Assembly: GCA_043815185.1 (NCBI GenBank)
Contig: JBDRJF010000001.1
Coordinates: forward strand, 89,690 to 153,689
Source: Candidatus Omnitrophota bacterium
GTDB taxonomy: Bacteria; Omnitrophota; Gorgyraeia; Duberdicusellales; 4484-171
Direction of reading: 5' to 3'
DNA length: 64,000 nt
The position numbers and the translations under genes were made by a program. Positions 3,410 to 40,998 of this stretch are shown here, in pieces. Under the pieces are notes generated by a model. The model saw only the letters and a program-made list of their open reading frames with translations. It made no database searches and was not told the origin of the DNA. Within the stretch, counting starts at the first letter, position 1. Each line of letters starts with the position of its first letter.

Positions 3410-4373
3410 TGATTGCTTTATTAAGCTCTTTTTTATTTACGGTGGCTGCTCCCAATTTACCGACTACAATCCCGGCAGCCAAATTAGCAATTATTGCTGC
3501 CTCATTATAAGTGGCCCCGGAAGCTAAACCTAAAGTAAAAACAGCAATTACCGTATCGCCGGCTCCGCTTACGTCAAAAACCTCTAAAGCTGCTGTGGGT
3601 ATATGATAGTGTTCCTTACCGGAAAATAGCAGCATTCCGTCCTCGCCTAAAGTTATCAGCAGCGCTTTAGGGTTTAATTTCTTCATAATTATTTTGCCCA
3701 AGAAAGGTAACTGATTTTTATTTCTTATCTTGATATTTGCTGCCACCTGAGCTTCTTGCAGGTTAGGGGTAAGAGCAGTTACGTCTTCATAATAACTAAA
3801 GTGTTCTTCTTTGGGGTCAACGGTAATTATTTTCTTTTTCTTGCGGCACAAACCTACTAACTTTTCTAACAGTAGAGGATTTATTACCCCTTTACCGTAA
3901 TCTTCGACAATTACCGCATCAAAATTATCTAGGCTCTTCTTGATTTTACTAAGAATCAAGCGGTTTATACTAGCCGCAAGAAATTCCAATGATTCCCAAT
4001 CAACCCTTAACATTTGCTGACGATGGGCAATTATTCTTGTTTTTAAAGTCGTTGGCCGCTGGTCATCTTTAACAATTAAATCAGTGCAAATGCCGCTATC
4101 ATTGATAAGCGAAAACAAACTTTCACCAAAATGATCTTTGCCAATGACTCCGCAAAGGCTTACCTTAGCACCTAAAGCACTAAGGTTTAATCCTACATTG
4201 GCTGCCCCGCCGGGGACAAACTTCTCCTTGTTGGCCCAAACTACCGGAACCGGAGCTTCCGGCGAAACCCGCTCTACCGCTCCAAAAATATGGTGGTCAA
4301 GGATTAAATCCCCGATCACCAGGATATTCTTGCCTCTAAAACGGGAAACAATATTCTTGAGCTTCTCTTTCAT
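3399..4373 (-). CDS. rfaE: D-glycero-beta-D-manno-heptose-7-phosphate kinase (RfaE domain I type, PfkB family)
   Basis: ILVIGDLILDHHIFGAVERVSPEAPVPVV and the C-terminal DVSGAGDT PfkB motif. Only the kinase domain is present. Confidence 0.75.
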   Translation of the reverse strand: MKEKLKNIVSRFRGKNILVIGDLILDHHIFGAVERVSPEAPVPVVWANKEKFVPGGAANVGLNLSALGAKVSLCGVIGKDHFGESLFSLINDSGICTDLIVKDDQRPTTLKTRIIAHRQQMLRVDWESLEFLAASINRLILSKIKKSLDNFDAVIVEDYGKGVINPLLLEKLVGLCRKKKKIITVDPKEEHFSYYEDVTALTPNLQEAQVAANIKIRNKNQLPFLGKIIMKKLNPKALLITLGEDGMLLFSGKEHYHIPTAALEVFDVSGAGDTVIAVFTLGLASGATYNEAAIIANLAAGIVVGKLGAATVNKKELNKAINGE

Positions 4374-4469: not shown

Positions 4470-5594
4470 TTACAGGAAGGAGCTGGAGACAGTATCAGCG
4501 AAACAAAAGCCCTTTTTAGTCAAACAAACTCCGGTTATTTGCTTATTTTTCCGGCGGTATTTAAGCAGTCCCTTAGCTAAAAGCTGGGCCAAAGCCTTAT
4601 TTTCTAAACTGGGAAAGTCATAGCCGGTACGCTGCTTAAACCACTCAAAATCTATACCCTCTTTAGTTCTCACCTTGATCGCAGCTAGTTCCTGAGCCTG
4701 CCGCCGTTTCGACAAAGATTCACTAAAGACAACCGGATTTTGGCCCCTATTTAGACGTTCTATATATTCAATAACACCAGAAATATTCCTCTCTCGCTTA
4801 CCCCCAATAAAAGATACTGCTGCCGGCCCTAAGCCTAAATAGGAGTTCCCTTGCCAATAATTCATATTATGTTGGGATTCAAACCCTGGCTGGGCAAAGT
4901 TAGAGATTTCATAGTGTTCAAATCCCTGCTGGGTAAGATAATTAACAGCACCGGTATACATTTTAGCCAGAATGCCGTCATCGAGAGGCGTGATAAACTT
5001 CCGCTTAATCTGCAAAAATAAGGGAGTATTTTTCTCATAAGTCAGGCAATAGGTTGAAATGTGATTGATGCCGGATGAAACTGCCTGCTTTAATTCAGCC
5101 AGCCAATCAGCTAAGGCCTCTCCGTCTGCGCCGAAAATTAAATCAACCCCCAGGTCCTTAAACCCGGCTCTTTTCGCCAGTTTAATTGCCCGCATTGCTG
5201 CTTCCGAATTATGAGCTCGGCCTAACTTTTTTAACTTGGGATCAAAGAACGACTGAACACCTATACTGATCCGGTTAACTCCCGCTTCAATAAATAACTT
5301 AAGCTTATCCTGGTCAATGCTTTCAGGATTAACTTCAATGGTAAACTCACGCAAATTCCTTGATATTAACCGCAAACTTCCTAATAATTTTTTCAAACTG
5401 GTTATACTTAAGCTGCTCGGGGTTCCTCCTCCGATATAAAGAGTCGAAAAATCGCTGCCTAAACCGGCTATTTGCCGGCACAAAACTTTTAGGTAAGCAG
5501 CAGCTAAACGCGAATCATAGACCAGGCTATAAAAATCACAATAAGGGCATTTTTTACTACAAAAAGGTATATGAATATATAATGATTTCGGCAT
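4470..5594 (-). CDS. hemW: radical SAM heme chaperone / oxygen-independent coproporphyrinogen oxidase-like protein
   Basis: YIHIPFCSKKCPYCDF radical SAM motif, GGGTPS, and a C-terminal HemN_C-like region. Confidence 0.8.
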   Translation of the reverse strand: MPKSLYIHIPFCSKKCPYCDFYSLVYDSRLAAAYLKVLCRQIAGLGSDFSTLYIGGGTPSSLSITSLKKLLGSLRLISRNLREFTIEVNPESIDQDKLKLFIEAGVNRISIGVQSFFDPKLKKLGRAHNSEAAMRAIKLAKRAGFKDLGVDLIFGADGEALADWLAELKQAVSSGINHISTYCLTYEKNTPLFLQIKRKFITPLDDGILAKMYTGAVNYLTQQGFEHYEISNFAQPGFESQHNMNYWQGNSYLGLGPAAVSFIGGKRERNISGVIEYIERLNRGQNPVVFSESLSKRRQAQELAAIKVRTKEGIDFEWFKQRTGYDFPSLENKALAQLLAKGLLKYRRKNKQITGVCLTKKGFCFADTVSSSFL

Positions 5595-18430: not shown

Positions 18431-18775
18431 TTAATCCTCCTTGCTCAGCCGGGATTTAATCTTACTTTCTCGATTTATAATCAGATTCCGCAGTATCCTC
18501 TCTTCCAATCTTAGGGTTTCTTTTAACTCTGAGAGCTTATCGCTATCGAATGTAAAATTAACCTGCCAATAACAGCCTTTATGGTATTTTTTCTTTTCGG
18601 CCTCTCTTCCGCGTAAAAAATAATAAAATTTTCTCTCTTTGGCCCATATTTTAGAGGCTAAAACCTCACCTCCTGAATCCTTAATCCGTTTAGTAATTTT
18701 TTCAAAAATTTCCTCTCGGACCTGGTCCTCCAAGTCTGGTCGCAAAATAATCATGCTCTCATAATCCCTGTTCAT
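18431..18775 (-). CDS. rpsF: 30S ribosomal protein S6
   Basis: YESMIILRPDL start and a strong AGGAGG Shine-Dalgarno sequence. Confidence 0.85.
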   Translation of the reverse strand: MNRDYESMIILRPDLEDQVREEIFEKITKRIKDSGGEVLASKIWAKERKFYYFLRGREAEKKKYHKGCYWQVNFTFDSDKLSELKETLRLEERILRNLIINRESKIKSRLSKED

Positions 18776-18855
18776 TAATTGCCTCCTGCAACTCTTTGTT
18801 CCCTTTATTACTACATTTTACCTATGAAAACCTATGCCATTTATTAATAACATTG

Positions 18856-18916
18856 ATGGATACAATATGCGGTTAAGATCAGATCTCGACCGGCTCCGCC
18901 TATGGCGGAGATTGTA
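18856..18916 (-). repeat. copy A of a 61-nt two-hairpin intergenic element (second copy at 40102..40163)
   Basis: Minus strand: TACAATCTCCGCCATAGGCGGAGCCGGTCGAGATCTGATCTTAACCGCATATTGTATCCAT. Nearly identical flanks and first hairpin occur at 40102..40163. Confidence 0.7.
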
Positions 18917-18923
18917 GGCACTA

Positions 18924-23379: not shown

Positions 23380-23454
23380 TGGTTGCCCGGCCTGGACTCG
23401 AACCAGGAAACTCAGCTCCAAAAGCTGATGTGTTACCGATTACACTACCGGGCA
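23380..23454 (-). tRNA. tRNA-Gln (anticodon UUG), CCA encoded
   Basis: Hand-folded cloverleaf: acceptor TGCCCGG/CCGGGCA, D stem GTGT/ACAC, anticodon stem TCAGC/GCTGA with loop TTTTGGA, T arm CCTGG-TTCGAGT-CCAGG, then ACCA. Confidence 0.85.
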
Positions 23455-38679: not shown

Positions 38680-40098
38680 TTACTTTTGAGAAAGATGTCT
38701 AATTATTCCTTGGCATGCCTTCTTTGCCATACCCATAGCTTCGATGACTGTTCCTTCTCCTCCGACAATATCTCCTCCGGCAAATACACCCTTTACAGAA
38801 GTCTCCATACTTTCCGAATCTACTTCCAGATCGCCGTATTTATCAACTTTTAAATCCGGAGTAACACTAGTCAAGACTCTGTTGGCGCCTAAACCCACTG
38901 CCACTATAGCTAAATCGCAATGATTTTCAAAATCACTGCCTTCAATAGGTAAAGGCCTCCTTCGCCCCGATTCATCCGGCTCACCCAAGCGGCACTCTAA
39001 AGATCTTATTTTCTTCACAAAACCTGAGCCATCACTGCTAAACTCCTGGGGCTGAACTAAAAATTTAAAAAGAACTCCTTCTTCCTTAGCATGCTCAATC
39101 TCTAAGCGCCTTGCCGGCATCTCAATTTCTCTACGTCGATAAAAGATTGTTACGCTCGGCTTAATTCCCTTTATCTTCTGCAGGCGCAAAGCAACTCGGG
39201 CCGCATCCATAGCGGTATTACCTCCACCGATAACAACCATATTCTCACCGACATTAATCGGAGTATGGAATTGAGGGAATTTATATGCTGACATAAGATT
39301 TACCCGAGTTAGAAACTCATTAGCCGAATAAACATTGCAGAAATTCTCACCCTTTATCTTTAAAAAAGATGGCACACCAGCGCCTAAACCTAAAAATACC
39401 GCTGAAAACCTCTCTCTGAAAAGTTCATCCAAAACCTTGGTTCTTCCGATAATAAGATTAGGTATAAATTCCACTCCTAACTTTTTAAGATAGTCTAGCT
39501 CAAAGTCTAAAATATCCCGCGGTAACCTGAAAGGCGGAATGCCATATCTTAAGACTCCTCCGGTTTTATGTAACCCTTCAAAAATAACTGATTGTATACC
39601 CTGGCGGCTTAATTCTCCAGCTACAGACAAACCAGCCGGCCCGGAGCCCACAATTGCTACTTTAAATTTAGAAAACCTTCCTTTTTTTTGCAAAGGAACT
39701 TCTAAATTATTCCTGATCCCGTAATCACCGACGAACCTCTCTAGAAAATGAATGTTAATTGCTTCCTCGGAAGCAAAAGGTAAACCCTTTTTACTAAATA
39801 CACAAGTCTTCCGGCATTGATACTCAGCCGGACAAACCCTTCCGCAGATAGAAGGAAAATCATTCTTTTCTCTAATCTTAAAATAAGCTCCCTCATAGTC
39901 TTTCTCTGTAATCTGGGCGATGAATTTCTTTATATCTATTTCTACCGGACAACCATCAATACAAGTAGGATTCTTACATTGAATACAGCGCTTAGCTTCA
40001 AGAAGAGCCTCTTCTTCATTGTAGCCAAGAGCAACTTCTTCAAAGTTACTTGCTCTAACTTTCGCCTCTAATTCTCTTATTCTTACCGGTTCTTTCAT
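38680..40098 (-). CDS. nfnB: GltD-like NADPH-dependent oxidoreductase, large subunit (NfnB / SudA type)
   Basis: N-terminal Cys clusters CIQCKNPTCIDGCP, VAIVGSGPAGLSVA, and a second GGGNTAMD fold. Paired with a PyrK-like subunit. Confidence 0.75.
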   Translation of the reverse strand: MKEPVRIRELEAKVRASNFEEVALGYNEEEALLEAKRCIQCKNPTCIDGCPVEIDIKKFIAQITEKDYEGAYFKIREKNDFPSICGRVCPAEYQCRKTCVFSKKGLPFASEEAINIHFLERFVGDYGIRNNLEVPLQKKGRFSKFKVAIVGSGPAGLSVAGELSRQGIQSVIFEGLHKTGGVLRYGIPPFRLPRDILDFELDYLKKLGVEFIPNLIIGRTKVLDELFRERFSAVFLGLGAGVPSFLKIKGENFCNVYSANEFLTRVNLMSAYKFPQFHTPINVGENMVVIGGGNTAMDAARVALRLQKIKGIKPSVTIFYRRREIEMPARRLEIEHAKEEGVLFKFLVQPQEFSSDGSGFVKKIRSLECRLGEPDESGRRRPLPIEGSDFENHCDLAIVAVGLGANRVLTSVTPDLKVDKYGDLEVDSESMETSVKGVFAGGDIVGGEGTVIEAMGMAKKACQGIIRHLSQK

Positions 40099-40101
40099 TT
40101 C

Positions 40102-40163
40102 ATGGATACAATCTATCGGTTGAGGCTTAGCCTCAACCGGCTCCGCCTTCGGCGGAGATTGTA
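40102..40163 (-). repeat. copy B of the two-hairpin intergenic element (first copy at 18856..18916)
   Basis: Minus strand: TACAATCTCCGCCGAAGGCGGAGCCGGTTGAGGCTAAGCCTCAACCGATAGATTGTATCCAT. It occupies essentially the whole nfnA-nfnB spacer. Confidence 0.7.
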
Positions 40164-40167
40164 TACC

Positions 40168-40998
40168 TCATAACTTGTAAAGATTACAAATATGTTTCTC
40201 TTTGTCCTCGTATACCTTATTCCTCTTAATTAGCTCATCCCAATCGATTAGAGAAGCATCAAATTCCGGACCATCTACACAAGTAAATTTGACTACTCCA
40301 TCCACGGTAACCCGACAACCTCCGCACATACCAGTAGCATCAATCATCAATGAATTTAATGATACTAAAGTCTTTATCCCCGAATCTTTAGTGACTAACG
40401 AAACTTTTTTCATCATCGGGACCGGGCCAACAGCATAAATAAGACCATGCTGCTCCTTACTAATAAGTTCTTTTAATATATCGGTAGTAAATCCCTTCTG
40501 ACCGCAAGAGCCGTCGTCAGTAGCGATAAGTAGCTCATCAGAAACTGTTTTTAGCTCCCCTTCTAAGATTAAGAGATCTTTTGTCCTTGCTCCCAGTATA
40601 GTAGTCACCTGATTCCCGGCAGCCTTTAACTCTCTAGCTGCCGGATAGATCTCGGCAATACCGACCCCTCCTCCTACTAAAATTACCTTCCCGTATTTTT
40701 TTATCTCGGTATGGTGGCCTAAGGGGCCAACTAAAGCGTAGAGGGACTCACCGATCTCTAAGCGGCCTAGGAGCTTAGTAGTCAACCCTACCTCTTGGAC
40801 AATTAAGGTGATAGTGCCGTCTTCTGTATCTTTCTCAACTACGGTTAACGGCACTCTTTCCCCGACTTCCGATACCATCAAAATTACGAATTGACCCGGC
40901 TTTGCTTTTTCAGCAATATCGGGAGCGACTACCTTTAATTGAGTAATCCTTACCCCTAAAGCATCAACTAAGATATTCTTTTCCACTATTTTTGCCAT
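40168..40998 (-). CDS. nfnA: PyrK-like FAD/[2Fe-2S] electron-transfer subunit (NfnA / SudB type)
   Basis: Ferredoxin-reductase fold (GQFVILM, VGGGVGIA) and C-terminal MCGGCRV...CVDGPEF. Confidence 0.75.
   Translation of the reverse strand: MAKIVEKNILVDALGVRITQLKVVAPDIAEKAKPGQFVILMVSEVGERVPLTVVEKDTEDGTITLIVQEVGLTTKLLGRLEIGESLYALVGPLGHHTEIKKYGKVILVGGGVGIAEIYPAARELKAAGNQVTTILGARTKDLLILEGELKTVSDELLIATDDGSCGQKGFTTDILKELISKEQHGLIYAVGPVPMMKKVSLVTKDSGIKTLVSLNSLMIDATGMCGGCRVTVDGVVKFTCVDGPEFDASLIDWDELIKRNKVYEDKEKHICNLYKL

Follow-up and report, generated by a model that had tools for sequence, protein, structure and literature searches.

In IS608 the tetranucleotide target is recognised through base pairing with a guide that lies beside a hairpin (PMC5934647, PMC3201880). 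REP/BIME sequences are short structured extragenic repeats that are thought to be non-autonomous, a RAYT (TnpA-REP) recognising their folded DNA in trans (PMC8266576). Transcribed MITEs of enterobacteria and Neisseria (ERIC/IRU, Correia elements, RUP/BOX) are small structured repeats within operons that join the mRNA and are able to alter the expression of their neighbours. Integron attC sites conserve a structure while their sequence varies; they keep an unpaired base in the stem, have a variable and sometimes branched top, and lie just downstream of an ORF. Islands and prophages that enter tRNA genes through tyrosine integrases keep the tRNA gene intact by a direct repeat of its 3' end, starting from the T-loop.

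Here we analysed a 61-mer that occurs twice in the window (the whole 64 kb stretch of DNA under study) and folds into a three-way junction (3WJ). We propose, with a probability of about 0.6, that it is the conserved folded core of previously undescribed tiny (about 65-150 nt) mobile insertions in an Omnitrophota clade. This value is a compromise between two judgements: we consider it very likely that the insertions form a mobile family whose fold is under selection, and we put forward a specific mechanism only tentatively. The copies fall into a gene type, inserted at start codons, and a tRNA type, inserted in tRNA genes. We found no described equivalent in the literature searched.

The element resembles IS200/IS605 transposons, including IS608, and their ORF-less derivatives (PATEs). 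As in these, insertion occurs directly 3' of a specific tetranucleotide, the gene-type copies lack a classical fixed-length target duplication, the conserved feature is a folded imperfect palindrome rather than terminal inverted repeats, and four internal bases beside the structure are the complement of the tetranucleotide that flanks the element as target or cleavage site (PMC5934647, PMC3201880). However, IS200/IS605 elements have a hairpin near each end, whereas the present element has one branched 3WJ at one end only; its guide lies 3' of the structure as a plain Watson-Crick extension of the basal stem (P1), and its right end, a fixed 84 nt further on, is closed by the same tetranucleotide. 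Repeats of 18-30 nt flank the tRNA-type copies, whereas IS200/IS605 elements make none, and no Y1 HUH transposase (TnpA) was seen in the examined loci with Pfam gene lists.

Like REP/BIME the element is a short structured extragenic repeat, presumably non-autonomous, but those are high-copy single imperfect palindromes of 20-40 nt with a 5' GTAG, whereas here we find a 3WJ without a GTAG foot, a low copy number (2 in 64 kb), precise targeting of start codons and T-loops, and a tail that restores the target. With attC sites it shares the conserved structure and variable sequence, the unpaired stem base, the variable top and the position just past an ORF, but it has no RYYYAAC/GTTRRRY core boxes, integron integrase or cassette array, and its copies lie between core housekeeping genes (pth, rpsF, gltD-like, accA, trpS and similar). 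The tRNA-type copies resemble tRNA-targeting islands in the direct repeat that keeps the tRNA gene intact; unlike islands, the element is ~130 nt long and encodes nothing, its seven tRNA-type copies sit at six tRNA species with the same junction, and the family also targets start codons. The MITEs named above are likewise small, structured and intra-operonic, but they combine terminal inverted repeats with short fixed duplications (such as TA), show no specificity for start codons or T-loops, and do not supply the downstream start codon.

Copies A and B in the window

The first copy (A) occupies exactly 18856-18916 on the minus strand, in the pth/rpsF spacer, and the second (B) lies at about 40102-40165 on the minus strand, between FNR-like and gltD-like genes. 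An earlier note on this DNA had described the pair, and the sequence, coordinates, arms (TACAAT...ATTGTATCCAT), identical hairpin (CTCCGCC-N3-GGCGGAG) and junction (CCGGT...AACCG) of the two copies were all found as described there. The pattern CTCCGCCNNNGGCGGAGCCGGT has two matches in the window, namely copies A and B, and none in 100 shuffles; two covariance models run with filters off detected no third copy in the 64 kb. The second hairpin had been said to differ between the copies and still pair, with at least one compensatory change. Indeed, at least two positions are changed on both sides, and the hairpin pairs with one C.A mismatch and one G.T pair in copy A and with 10 perfect pairs in copy B. 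Both copies fold into a 3WJ in which P1 carries the hairpins P2 and P3 (Table 1). Predicted RNA folding energies are -22.7 kcal/mol for copy A (z -2.8) and -37.0 kcal/mol for copy B (z -7.2), the corresponding DNA z values are -3.4 and -7.7, and the opposite strands fold about equally well. The outer four pairs of P1 are poor in both copies. The copies have no U-tract, and no terminator-like or sigma-70-like site was predicted around copy A, in line with the earlier statement that the repeats are not terminators.

Table 1. Coordinates of features of the two insertions, numbered along the window
Feature	Position	Strand	Remarks
Orphaned ancestral rpsF start codon GTG	18919-18921	-	Left junction of insertion A; insertion starts directly after
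Copy A 3WJ	18854-18922	-	Covariance-model matches 76.5 bits (R1), 70 bits (R2); folds
Copy A, P1 5' arm	18911-18916
Copy A, P2 hairpin	18894-18910
Copy A, P3 hairpin	18870-18892
Copy A, P1 3' arm	18861-18866
Copy A, 'guide' CATC	18855-18858
Copy A tail, 86 nt	18773-18858	-	Homologous to gene-type tails of other genomes
Copy B 3WJ, short form without the 84-nt tail	40100-40169	-	Covariance-model matches 87.6 and 86.6 bits; folds
Copy B, P2	40141-40157
Copy B, P3	40117-40139
Copy B, P1 arms	~40158-40165 and 40104-40112
ATGA, ancestral FNR-like stop/gltD-like start overlap	40168-40171	-	Left junction of insertion B
Present gltD-like start codon	40096-40098	-	Directly past copy B; ORF 38680-40098

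TACAAT begins 7 nt past the pth stop codon in copy A and 4 nt past the FNR-like stop codon in copy B. These distances agree with the earlier description of both copies as starting 4-7 nt after the upstream stop, yet the position is better put as an insertion at the start of the next gene, exactly at its start codon, within operons whose genes are tightly packed. In the relatives L078 (...GGAGGATAATAGTG|GACAGAGAG) and L074 (...GGAGGATAGTAGTG|AGTAAGGAT) rpsF starts at the GTG that is orphaned in the window, which reads ...GGAGGATAATAGTG|CCTACAAT... at this left junction. The left end of copy A is degenerate, with CC in place of TA, and any target-site duplication is at most 2-3 nt. Its tail matches the tail profile with an nhmmer E of 2.3e-7, is missing from the empty sites in relatives, and closes with a new Shine-Dalgarno sequence (AGGAGG) followed by the ATG at which rpsF now starts (18773-18775). 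At copy B the ATGA of the left junction is duplicated, recurring at 40100-40103 on the other side, and the gltD-like protein has 472 aa in the window against 473 aa in relatives. Judged from these sequences, copy A now supplies the predicted Shine-Dalgarno sequence and start codon of rpsF, and copy B, a derivative that lacks the tail, sits in what used to be an ATGA stop/start overlap.

Orthologous sites in relatives are empty, and this presence/absence comparison shows both copies to be lineage-specific insertions and not conserved operon spacers. In the closest relatives the pth/rpsF and FNR-like/gltD-like gene pairs abut or overlap with no element between them. The pth/rpsF site is empty in L074 and L078, and the FNR-like/gltD-like site in L083 (AAGCTATGAAAAAAGAACCG) and L082 (AAGCTATGAAGAAAGAGCC), where the two genes overlap by 4 nt. 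Syntenic relatives of the window hold only housekeeping Pfam families. The earlier note would have counted a lack of the element in orthologous spacers, together with a total of only two copies, as a refutation; the spacers do lack it, and this indicates mobility, not insignificance.

Copy set and conserved fold

Further copies were found in related genomes, bringing the total to 19, of which 18 are aligned at full length and one long form (L041, 2877-2991) was scored apart. All of these (~19) come from metagenome-assembled genomes (MAGs) and short contigs. The copies are dispersed and show presence/absence polymorphism, including within one species, as is classical for MITEs. At accA/padR, L023 carries a copy and L089 has an empty site; tRNA-Leu and tRNA-Val are 13-17 nt apart in L086, L089, L094 and L095 versus 163 nt in L018; and within one Susulua species (identical Gmk protein) a copy is present at tRNA-Val in L098 and absent in L095-L097. 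The earlier suggestion of a REP/MITE-like repeat therefore stands as regards a mobile repeat, given the additional copies, the covariation and the presence/absence pattern, but not as regards REP, since there is no GTAG foot and the structure is not a single hairpin.

The fold is kept by compensatory changes across related copies. In a test on nine copies, compensatory changes occurred in 7 pairs and 97% of cells were paired, above all 500 shuffles. In the 18-copy alignment, which was fitted to the model and thus favours the structure, 20 of 28 pairs are compensatory and 95.7% of cells are paired, versus 30-39% in slid registers. P1 consists of 7 pairs, a conserved T.C mismatch (kept in 16 of the 18 copies) and then 4 outer pairs, its arms reading (NNYG)TATNCAAT / ATTGNATC(CRNN). 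P1 typically carries two hairpins, although their number can be anything from one to four; the loops, of 3 nt, are not conserved. The 3WJ ranges from 48 to 133 nt in length. L098 and L089 have unrelated hairpin sequences and the same fold. The balance of 12 G.T against 6 A.C pairs gives no clear strand.

Comparison with known RNA families was negative. Against Rfam 15 at gathering thresholds, the only match anywhere in the window was one tRNA; copies A and B searched at E<=10 yielded nothing beyond noise (10-14 bits), and six related loci searched at E<=1 yielded nothing but tRNAs and their antisense. Known RNA families were thus rejected, among them the small ribozymes (hammerhead, twister-sister, pistol, hatchet). 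For hammerhead, the junction strands of 0, 1-2 and 3-4 nt are also, by eye, too short for the core.

Target tetranucleotide, guide and spacing

Every copy sits directly 3' of a tetranucleotide NNYG. In the gene type it corresponds to the ATG or GTG at which the next gene starts, and in the tRNA type it is TTCG, CTTG or ATCG, on the antisense strand of the T-loop. The outer four pairs of P1 join these last four bases of the left flank to the four bases that follow the junction (CRNN), which are usually complementary to them; the flank/guide pairs seen are ATCG/CGAT, TTCG/CGAA, TTTG/CAAA, CTTG/CAAG, GATG/CATC and AATG/CATT. Pairs 1-4 with 149-152 are standard in 14, 18, 17 and 17 of the 18 copies, with 9, 8, 2 and 0 double changes; pair 2-151 is thus standard in 18/18, with 8 double changes.

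Full-length copies show a constant distance of 84 +/- 1 nt from the 3WJ to a second NNYG (gene type, 9 copies: 84.3 +/- 1.2 nt; tRNA type, 7 copies: 84.1 +/- 0.8 nt), even though tails of the tRNA type have no sequence relationship. Gene-type tails are homologous between loci, are found only attached to the junction, and end in a ribosome-binding region and a new start codon; tRNA-type tails close with a duplicate, 18-30 nt long, of the tRNA 3' end. Because this right-hand part replaces what the insertion cut off, the interrupted gene stays functional. TACAAT and ATTGTA bracket the junction, and gene-type tails, but not tRNA-type tails, have another ATTGTA 11 nt from their right end. Right ends have no conserved structure, unlike IS200/IS605-type elements, which have subterminal hairpins on the left and on the right. 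Direct repeats are non-significant at most gene-type loci and 18-30 nt long in the tRNA type; a fixed-length target duplication is not supported.

The seven tRNA-type copies lie at six tRNA species (Leu-taa, Val-gac twice, Val-cac, Pro-cgg and two different Met). All have a second copy of the last 17 nt of the tRNA at +115 to +129, with 0-1 mismatch, always preceded by ATTG.ATA with one base altered in L098 (ATTGATTA). The 115-129 nt between these repeats are non-coding and contain no integrase gene and no cargo. For L098, the simplest single event is entry of the tRNA 3' copy, the junction and 19 nt into the trailer, with a ~16-nt duplication; this fits a fixed unit of junction plus 84 nt only if the recipient allele differed.

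Other origins of the tails were considered. A decayed 5' part of a disrupted tRNA pseudogene was rejected, as the tRNA-type tails show no similarity to it (z -1.1 to 1.7). A native tRNA trailer was rejected in L018a, the spacing being only 13-17 nt in four other genomes, and is partly true in L098. A free-standing leader or promoter module was rejected as well, since the tail profile matches only junction-attached sequence in the ~255 kb searched.

Proposed mechanism and rival explanations

We propose that these are non-autonomous mobile elements whose folded 3WJ would serve as both recognition and joining site. The folded junction, as ssDNA or RNA, would be the substrate of a trans-acting enzyme that would cut and join at the mismatch-flanked G|T step, and the CRNN 'guide' would pick the target tetranucleotide via base pairing, functionally like target choice directed by IS200/IS605 transposons. 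We infer a protein-binding role for the folded junction, one of the options listed in the earlier note. For guide-paired, ruler-limited cutting of a folded single strand as the specific mechanism, we put the chances at somewhat below even. A broader formulation is more doubtful: the family may represent an ultra-small element class whose sole cis-requirement is a folded 3WJ and a 4-nt guide, a trans enzyme cutting at the guide-paired tetranucleotide and again 84 nt (eight helical turns) to the right, so that whatever lies between travels along, and only lineages that repair the target, with a portable ribosome-binding site and ATG or with the cognate tRNA 3' end, survive. Alternatively within this formulation, the tRNA segment may be reverse-transcribed from mature tRNA, a bacterial chromosomal analogue of retroplasmid hybrid cDNAs. 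Against the mechanism, only one end is structured, and the 18-30 nt repeats of the tRNA type are not explained by the IS200/IS605 mechanism itself. In the loci examined, no transposase, recombinase or reverse transcriptase was linked to the element and no autonomous copy was seen, nor did a junction adjoin a transposase in 8-20 kb pieces of the relevant genomes.

Two other mobile origins deserve weighing. The tRNA-type copies could be retro-mobile, a reverse transcriptase starting on, or switching to, the 3' end of a tRNA or pre-tRNA and joining it to element RNA through the tRNA-like end formed by the junction, after which the hybrid cDNA integrates at the matching tRNA gene by homology. The Mauriceville and Varkud retroplasmids of Neurospora, to which we liken this route, produce hybrid tRNA-plasmid cDNAs. 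The copied segment does always run from T-loop to 3' end and match the neighbouring tRNA, the duplications at the flanks are not of one length (~12-16 nt in L018a and L098), P1 with its 12 pairs resembles an acceptor/T minihelix, and in L096 an island next to the same tRNA array contains an RVT_1 gene. Moreover, the tRNA 3'-end copy is followed by CCA in 2 of 7 cases (L041 and L098), the gene itself being followed by TAT or GGG, where chance predicts ~1/64 per copy. However, the other five continue into the gene's own trailer bases, the uninterrupted target shares the CCA of L098 (CACCAAAAG in L086), no left segment of obvious RNA origin is seen in gene-type copies, there is no poly(A) or other retroelement hallmark, and the reverse transcriptase adjoins no copy and may be a defence gene; we regard this origin as improbable. 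We give an equally small chance to a miniature integrative element, a circle of ~130-150 bp with an attP-like site at the tail-end/3WJ junction that a tyrosine or serine recombinase inserts, carrying the displaced part of its target as tRNA-targeting islands do. The T-loop sublocation is the classical position of integrase att sites, and the direct repeats do span T-loop to tRNA 3' end, with variant bases in the junction-side repeat and the functional tRNA copy intact. The tail-end motif TAAGAGATG flanks the unit on both sides in L021 and L023, the empty accA/padR site (GATGAGTATACAG) resembles the end-to-end junction GATG|TATACAAT of the element, and islands with large serine recombinases use the same tRNA array. 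Yet seven elements at six tRNA species would each need their own identity segment while having one junction in common, an integrase lies beside no copy, the presumed left half-site of attP is unlike the T-stem, and gene-type targets have little beyond ATG in common with the element.

The fold may itself be under selection by the host, for a function as RNA, and this could account for the strong covariation. The copies would then be cis-acting intercistronic structures kept by the host for mRNA end protection or processing, or for translational uncoupling of neighbours, and scattered by duplication and loss. Gene-type copies are all in sense orientation inside operons, their tail is a conserved leader ending at a start codon, and its second ATTGTA could take the place of the 3' arm in pairing with the 5' arm. 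Nevertheless, all seven tRNA-type copies are antisense to tRNA genes, orthologous sites are empty in close relatives and polymorphic within species, the target-derived repeats and the fixed 84-nt spacing lack a rationale in RNA function, the 3-nt loops are not conserved and the hairpins vary in number from one to four, and no Rfam family matches; we regard a host RNA as very unlikely. Chance similarity or an assembly artefact might be suggested by the origin of all data from MAGs and metagenome contigs, but zero matches are expected by chance, and independent assemblies (NCBI, ENA, JGI, Logan) carry the family, L073 and L019 even holding the same copy in independent data sets; this reading is already refuted as far as sequence data permit.

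If the reading as guide-directed mobile insertions is true, a distinct type is added to the short list of structured bacterial mini-repeats, one that strikes the most sensitive base of a gene (start codon or tRNA T-loop) and survives by carrying the repair. It would also mean that translation-initiation regions of essential genes are rewritten, the rpsF ribosome-binding site and ATG being element-derived, that stop/start translational coupling is broken, and that tightly spaced tRNA genes are separated. The guide-plus-ruler logic would interest those working on programmable insertion, and the presence/absence pattern could serve as a strain-level marker for uncultured Omnitrophota. The element probably causes assembly breaks at tRNA arrays. 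For annotation, some 'conserved intergenic RNA motifs' with excellent covariation may be mobile DNA.

Several narrower searches complete the analysis. Three scans of viral contigs gave 0 matches, which argues against a phage or viral origin. Exact-sequence look-ups of the window proteins returned no match, no orthologues of the element-bearing loci were found within the window, and the P0252 contigs gave no tRNA array because all of them end just past rpoZ. A conserved mini-ORF starting at the orphan ATG (MYTISAKGGAG*) was rejected: the compensatory changes are non-conservative for the peptide, with S to F and G to E substitutions in L072, and the frame stops after 5 codons in L040b. No terminator or sigma-70 promoter was predicted in the element or its tail, with copy A and L059 free of terminator-like sites; in L042 the scan flags the P3 hairpin, where the supposed terminator tail is the 3' arm of P1 (CATATTGTAT) and not a U run. 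The motif AAGAGATG heads an ORF of >100 codons only where an element tail ends in it; a 37-codon ORF past the L059 tail is the single, shorter exception.

The two copies in the window and their empty sites

The 61-mer quoted in the earlier note lies on the minus strand of the window exactly where it was placed, and the second copy, reported at 40102..40163, is present and reaches about 40165. Copies A and B share, as had been described, the arms TACAAT...ATTGTATCCAT, an identical hairpin CTCCGCC-N3-GGCGGAG and the junction CCGGT...AACCG; a pattern made from this common part matches the window at these two places only, and none of 100 shuffles. For both copies the predicted fold is a three-way junction, closed by helix P1 and bearing hairpins P2 and P3, with folding z-scores of -2.8 (A) and -7.2 (B) as RNA and -3.4 and -7.7 as DNA, and their complementary strands fold about equally strongly. 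U-tract, terminator and sigma-70 promoter are all missing, in keeping with the earlier statement that these are not terminators. Rfam gave zero matches even at E<=10, and two covariance models run with filters off found no third copy in the 64-kb window.

No element occurs anywhere in the relatives' loci for these two sites, an absence from orthologous spacers that the earlier note, if only these two copies existed, would have counted against its reading. In CAYVYJ and CAZVQU (L074 and L078; L-numbers are loci fetched from related MAGs or metagenome contigs, a and b separate copies in one locus) the pth-rpsF gap is 2 nt, and the empty site reads ...GGAGGATA(G/A)TAGTG up to the joining point, this GTG being the rpsF start. 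The order at copy A is ...GGAGGATAATAGTG, the junction, an 86-nt tail ending AGGAGGCAATTAATG, and rpsF from codon 2. Comparison with these empty sites therefore places an insertion of 146 nt exactly after the old rpsF start codon, so that both the ribosome-binding site and the ATG that rpsF now has are new. Here 11 of 15 bases agree between tail end and flanking sequence, a likeness that alone is not significant. At the other site the FNR-like and gltD-like genes overlap by ATGA in L082 (90% identity) and L083 (85%), reading AAGCTATGAAAAAAGAACCG; the filled locus reads AAGTTATGA, then GG-junction-CC, then ATGAAATGAAAGAACCG, and copy B consists of the junction alone, about 65-70 nt, without the long tail.

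Each orphaned start codon heads a short ORF that extends into the junction, giving the peptides V/MPTISAIGGAGRDLILTAYCIHQCY (copy A) and MRYTISAEGGAG (copy B), each up to a stop. The family as a whole does not conserve the peptide, so these ORFs are probably by-products; ribosomes reinitiating there would need to unwind the junction.

Further copies at start codons and tRNA genes

Pattern matching across 185,579 species genomes returned 71 loci, only 9 of them with the whole element, all from four MAGs labelled 'uncultured Planctomycetia' (CAZPYY, CAZHVO, CAYVYJ and CAZGLF). Synteny and a Pth identity of 85% put CAYVYJ in the same clade as the window, and we infer membership for the other three. 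The JGI metagenome scan yielded two contigs with the element, and the viral contigs scanned yielded none. A first covariance model, trained on nine copies, recovered more diverged copies adjoining the first ones, as well as others in subsequently fetched loci. The final alignment contains 18 full-length copies, and a second model made from these found nothing additional in about 270 kb. The sample comprises only about 19 copies, all from MAGs or metagenome contigs, and the rough density of one copy per 30-40 kb refers mostly to 8-20 kb pieces chosen around matches or orthologous sites.

Gene-type copies sit at the start codon of the downstream gene (table). Their tails all show homology to the copy A tail (nhmmer E 1e-15 to 2e-7), were seen solely joined to a junction, and end in ...ACTATTGTAGNTAAGAGATG, whose ATG starts the downstream gene. 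Before ORFs of >100 codons, AAGAGATG occurs exclusively at element tail ends; a shorter exception is one 37-codon ORF following the L059 tail. The accA/padR site is filled in L023 and empty in L089, where the genes overlap by ATGA. L089 also carries a copy in short form, in which the tail-end ATTGT may stand in place of the P1 3' arm through a deletion between the two ATTGT repeats; this reading is not secure, since the covariance model fits this copy poorly at P1.

The empty accA/padR junction reads GGATGAGTATACAG and resembles, on either side of the joining point, the end-to-end junction of the element, GATG followed by TATACAAT. The tail-end motif (C)TAAGAGATG flanks the unit on both sides in L023 and L021. 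This likeness and the doubled motif may reflect attB-like site-specific recombination or repeated insertion.

Seven tRNA-type copies lie downstream of, and antisense to, genes for tRNA Leu-taa, Val-gac (twice), Val-cac, Pro-cgg and two different Met. On the element strand, each begins with the tRNA 3' end duplicated in reverse complement, which spans from 1-3 nt beyond the discriminator to the T-loop and ends TTCG, CTTG or ATCG, and continues through the junction and about 65 nt of unique sequence to the real tRNA gene, which starts with the same 18-30 nt. These repeats are highly significant (z 9-14), and the second is preceded by ATTG.ATA in all copies, with a one-base variant, ATTGATTA, in L098. 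The tRNA-Leu/tRNA-Val gap is 163 nt in L018 versus 13-17 nt in the orthologous arrays of L086, L089, L094 and L095, so that the entire 148 nt has been inserted. Of the Susulua stagnicola contigs whose Gmk proteins are identical, L098 alone bears an element at tRNA-Val (L095-L097 lack it); by alignment its insertion measures 100 nt (a 16-nt trailer repeat, 19 nt, the junction and a copy of tRNA-Val 56-73), and resembles insertion of tRNA copy, junction and 19 nt into the trailer. A CCA follows the tRNA copy in 2 of the 7 while the gene itself has no encoded CCA; that of L098 is found in the uninterrupted target as well.

The non-functional 3'-end copies of L018a (tRNA-Leu) and L041a (tRNA-Pro), independent copies in different MAGs, show the same difference from their genes, C65 to T (tRNA sense). 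Read from 3' sequences alone, the sole tRNA of the window, Gln-ttg, ends in CCA, as do tRNA-Asp and tRNA-Cys in related loci (Cys in L018, L086 and L089, not in L094-L098); the element-bearing tRNAs (Leu, Val, Pro, Met) of this small sample have no encoded CCA.

Element copies and other features discussed in the text
Feature	Location	Strand	Remark
Copy A, pth and rpsF	18856-18916 (61-mer)	-	
Copy B, FNR-like and gltD-like	about 40102-40165	-	
Short ORF, copy A	window 18919-18842	-	
Short ORF, copy B	window 40171-40133	-	
tRNA Gln-ttg	window 23380-23454	-	
Gene-type, hisC-like/aroF-like		sense	names by eye from ORF translations
Gene-type, rimO-like/pgsA		sense	two species; names by eye from ORF translations
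Gene-type, accA/padR		sense	Pfam-backed through orthologous L089 locus; only pair so backed
Gene-type, trpS/scpA		sense	names by eye from ORF translations
Gene-type, upstream of trpS		sense	name by eye from ORF translation
Gene-type, map/rpsM		sense	names by eye from ORF translations
Empty accA/padR junction	L089:8236-8262		compared with L023:6390-6412
tRNA 3'-end copy, L018a	about 4946-4969		
tRNA 3'-end copy, L041a	about 5462-5479		
Long-form junction L040a	L040:1364-1496	-	two extra modules
Long-form junction L041b	L041:2877-2991	-	two extra modules
Long-form junction L021	L021:3996-4105	-	third hairpin, 8-bp; four-way junction
LAGLIDADG_3 ORF	L018:4377-4727	+	CAZPYY010000012
Serine recombinase	L086:11265-12977	-	CAZVQU010000001
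RVT_1 region	L096:8414-10573		Ga0208279_1000073
Rejected Plastid-ycf2 matches	L058:3244-3318, 3511-3585	+	

Fold, joining point and a proposed mechanism

The folded core of the family is strongly conserved. Across nine copies 97% of cells pair, and seven pairs are changed on both sides, beyond any of 500 shuffles; across 18 copies 95.7% are paired, with compensatory changes in 20 of 28 pairs and 30-39% pairing for slid partners, in an alignment that was fitted to the model and so favours structure. P1 is longer than first described: seven pairs lead to a T.C mismatch, retained in 16 of the 18 copies, and four more pairs. The hairpin sequences of L098 and L089 are unrelated and the architecture is the same; with few exceptions the loops have three bases (GAA, AAA, AAC, TAA, TTA), and they are unconserved. 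Hairpin number varies among copies, P3 being missing or short in L058a and L089, and the top of the structure appears modular. Counts of G.T (12) versus A.C (6) point to neither strand as functional. In two long-form junctions, L040a and L041b, P3 is replaced by two oppositely oriented copies of a GGTTTAGGCGAATCCTAAACC hairpin and spacer.

These copies are small insertions of one family, gained or lost between close relatives, with start codons and T-loops as targets and a precise joining point at the step from G to T beside the mismatch. A tetranucleotide NNYG directly precedes every copy, and the four bases after the junction (the guide, CRNN) are usually complementary to it (ATCG/CGAT, TTCG/CGAA, TTTG/CAAA, CTTG/CAAG, GATG/CATC, AATG/CATT), the paired columns covarying strongly; in L018b the flank is TTTG (the tRNA has CTTG) and the guide partner CAAA. 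Measured from the guide's first base through the last base of the second NNYG, the spacing is 84.3 +/- 1.2 nt for gene-type copies (n = 9) and 84.1 +/- 0.8 nt for tRNA-type copies (n = 7), and it is kept even though tRNA-type tails are unrelated in sequence to one another, to gene-type tails and to the tRNA body. In every case the right-hand segment restores the interrupted gene.

We propose that a trans-acting enzyme uses the folded junction as its substrate and that CRNN pairing would choose the site, much as IS608 selects its target by guide pairing (PMC5934647, PMC3201880). A ruler would set the second cut, so that the intervening 84 nt moves along with the element, and selection would retain only lineages with a target-repairing tail. 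The main rivals to such a guided enzyme are a mini-integrative circle and a retro-type mechanism, in which a tRNA would template a hybrid cDNA. The antisense orientation of tRNA-type copies and the presence or absence of copies among relatives make a purely host-selected RNA motif unlikely; secondary effects on mRNA are plausible.

Among known kinds, ORF-less elements of the IS200/IS605 type come closest in working, with guide-paired tetranucleotide targeting and structure-based recognition, but are defined by hairpins at both ends, which this element does not have, and no TnpA is known for it. The earlier suggestion of a REP- or MITE-like repeat stands insofar as this is a mobile repeat, small, structured and non-autonomous. 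A REP would have a GTAG foot and be a single hairpin, and a classical MITE would have a fixed target duplication; the element is neither of the two. Nor is it an attC site, lacking core boxes and an integron. The repeats of its tRNA-type copies look like integrase att sites, but neither integrase nor cargo accompanies them. It is neither a terminator nor any Rfam family, and we file it as a novel variant among small structured non-autonomous mobile repeats.

Other genes in and near the tRNA arrays

The L018 array, which holds two junction elements, also contains an ORF of 116 aa, whose LAGLIDADG_3 domain passes the curated Pfam cut-off (E 2e-6) and which takes up the tRNA-Cys/tRNA-Leu gap almost exactly. 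As this gap is only 26-59 nt in L086, L089 and L094 and 92 nt in L095, the ORF looks like a homing endonuclease, free-standing and inserted separately. Two matches to Rfam Plastid-ycf2 in L058 (38 and 28 bits against a gathering threshold of 65.7) were discarded as a tRNA antisense artefact.

In L086, which has the same tRNA array as L018, an island begins directly after tRNA-Asp; its first gene encodes a 570-aa large serine recombinase (Resolvase, Recombinase, Zn_ribbon_recom), and HTH, sigma-70-like and CHAT/peptidase genes come next. In one Susulua stagnicola variant (L096), a region about 2 kb past the array on its downstream side has genes for an HTH protein, a reverse transcriptase (RVT_1, 500 aa) and a RadC-like protein, where L095 and L097 have other genes; this may be a defence island, relevant here only as a possible source of reverse transcriptase. 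Of 17 Logan contigs carrying P0252, the four listed (L090-L093) all end about 120 nt after rpoZ, where the tRNA array starts, which suggests that repeats at the array (tRNAs, perhaps junction elements) break short-read assemblies.
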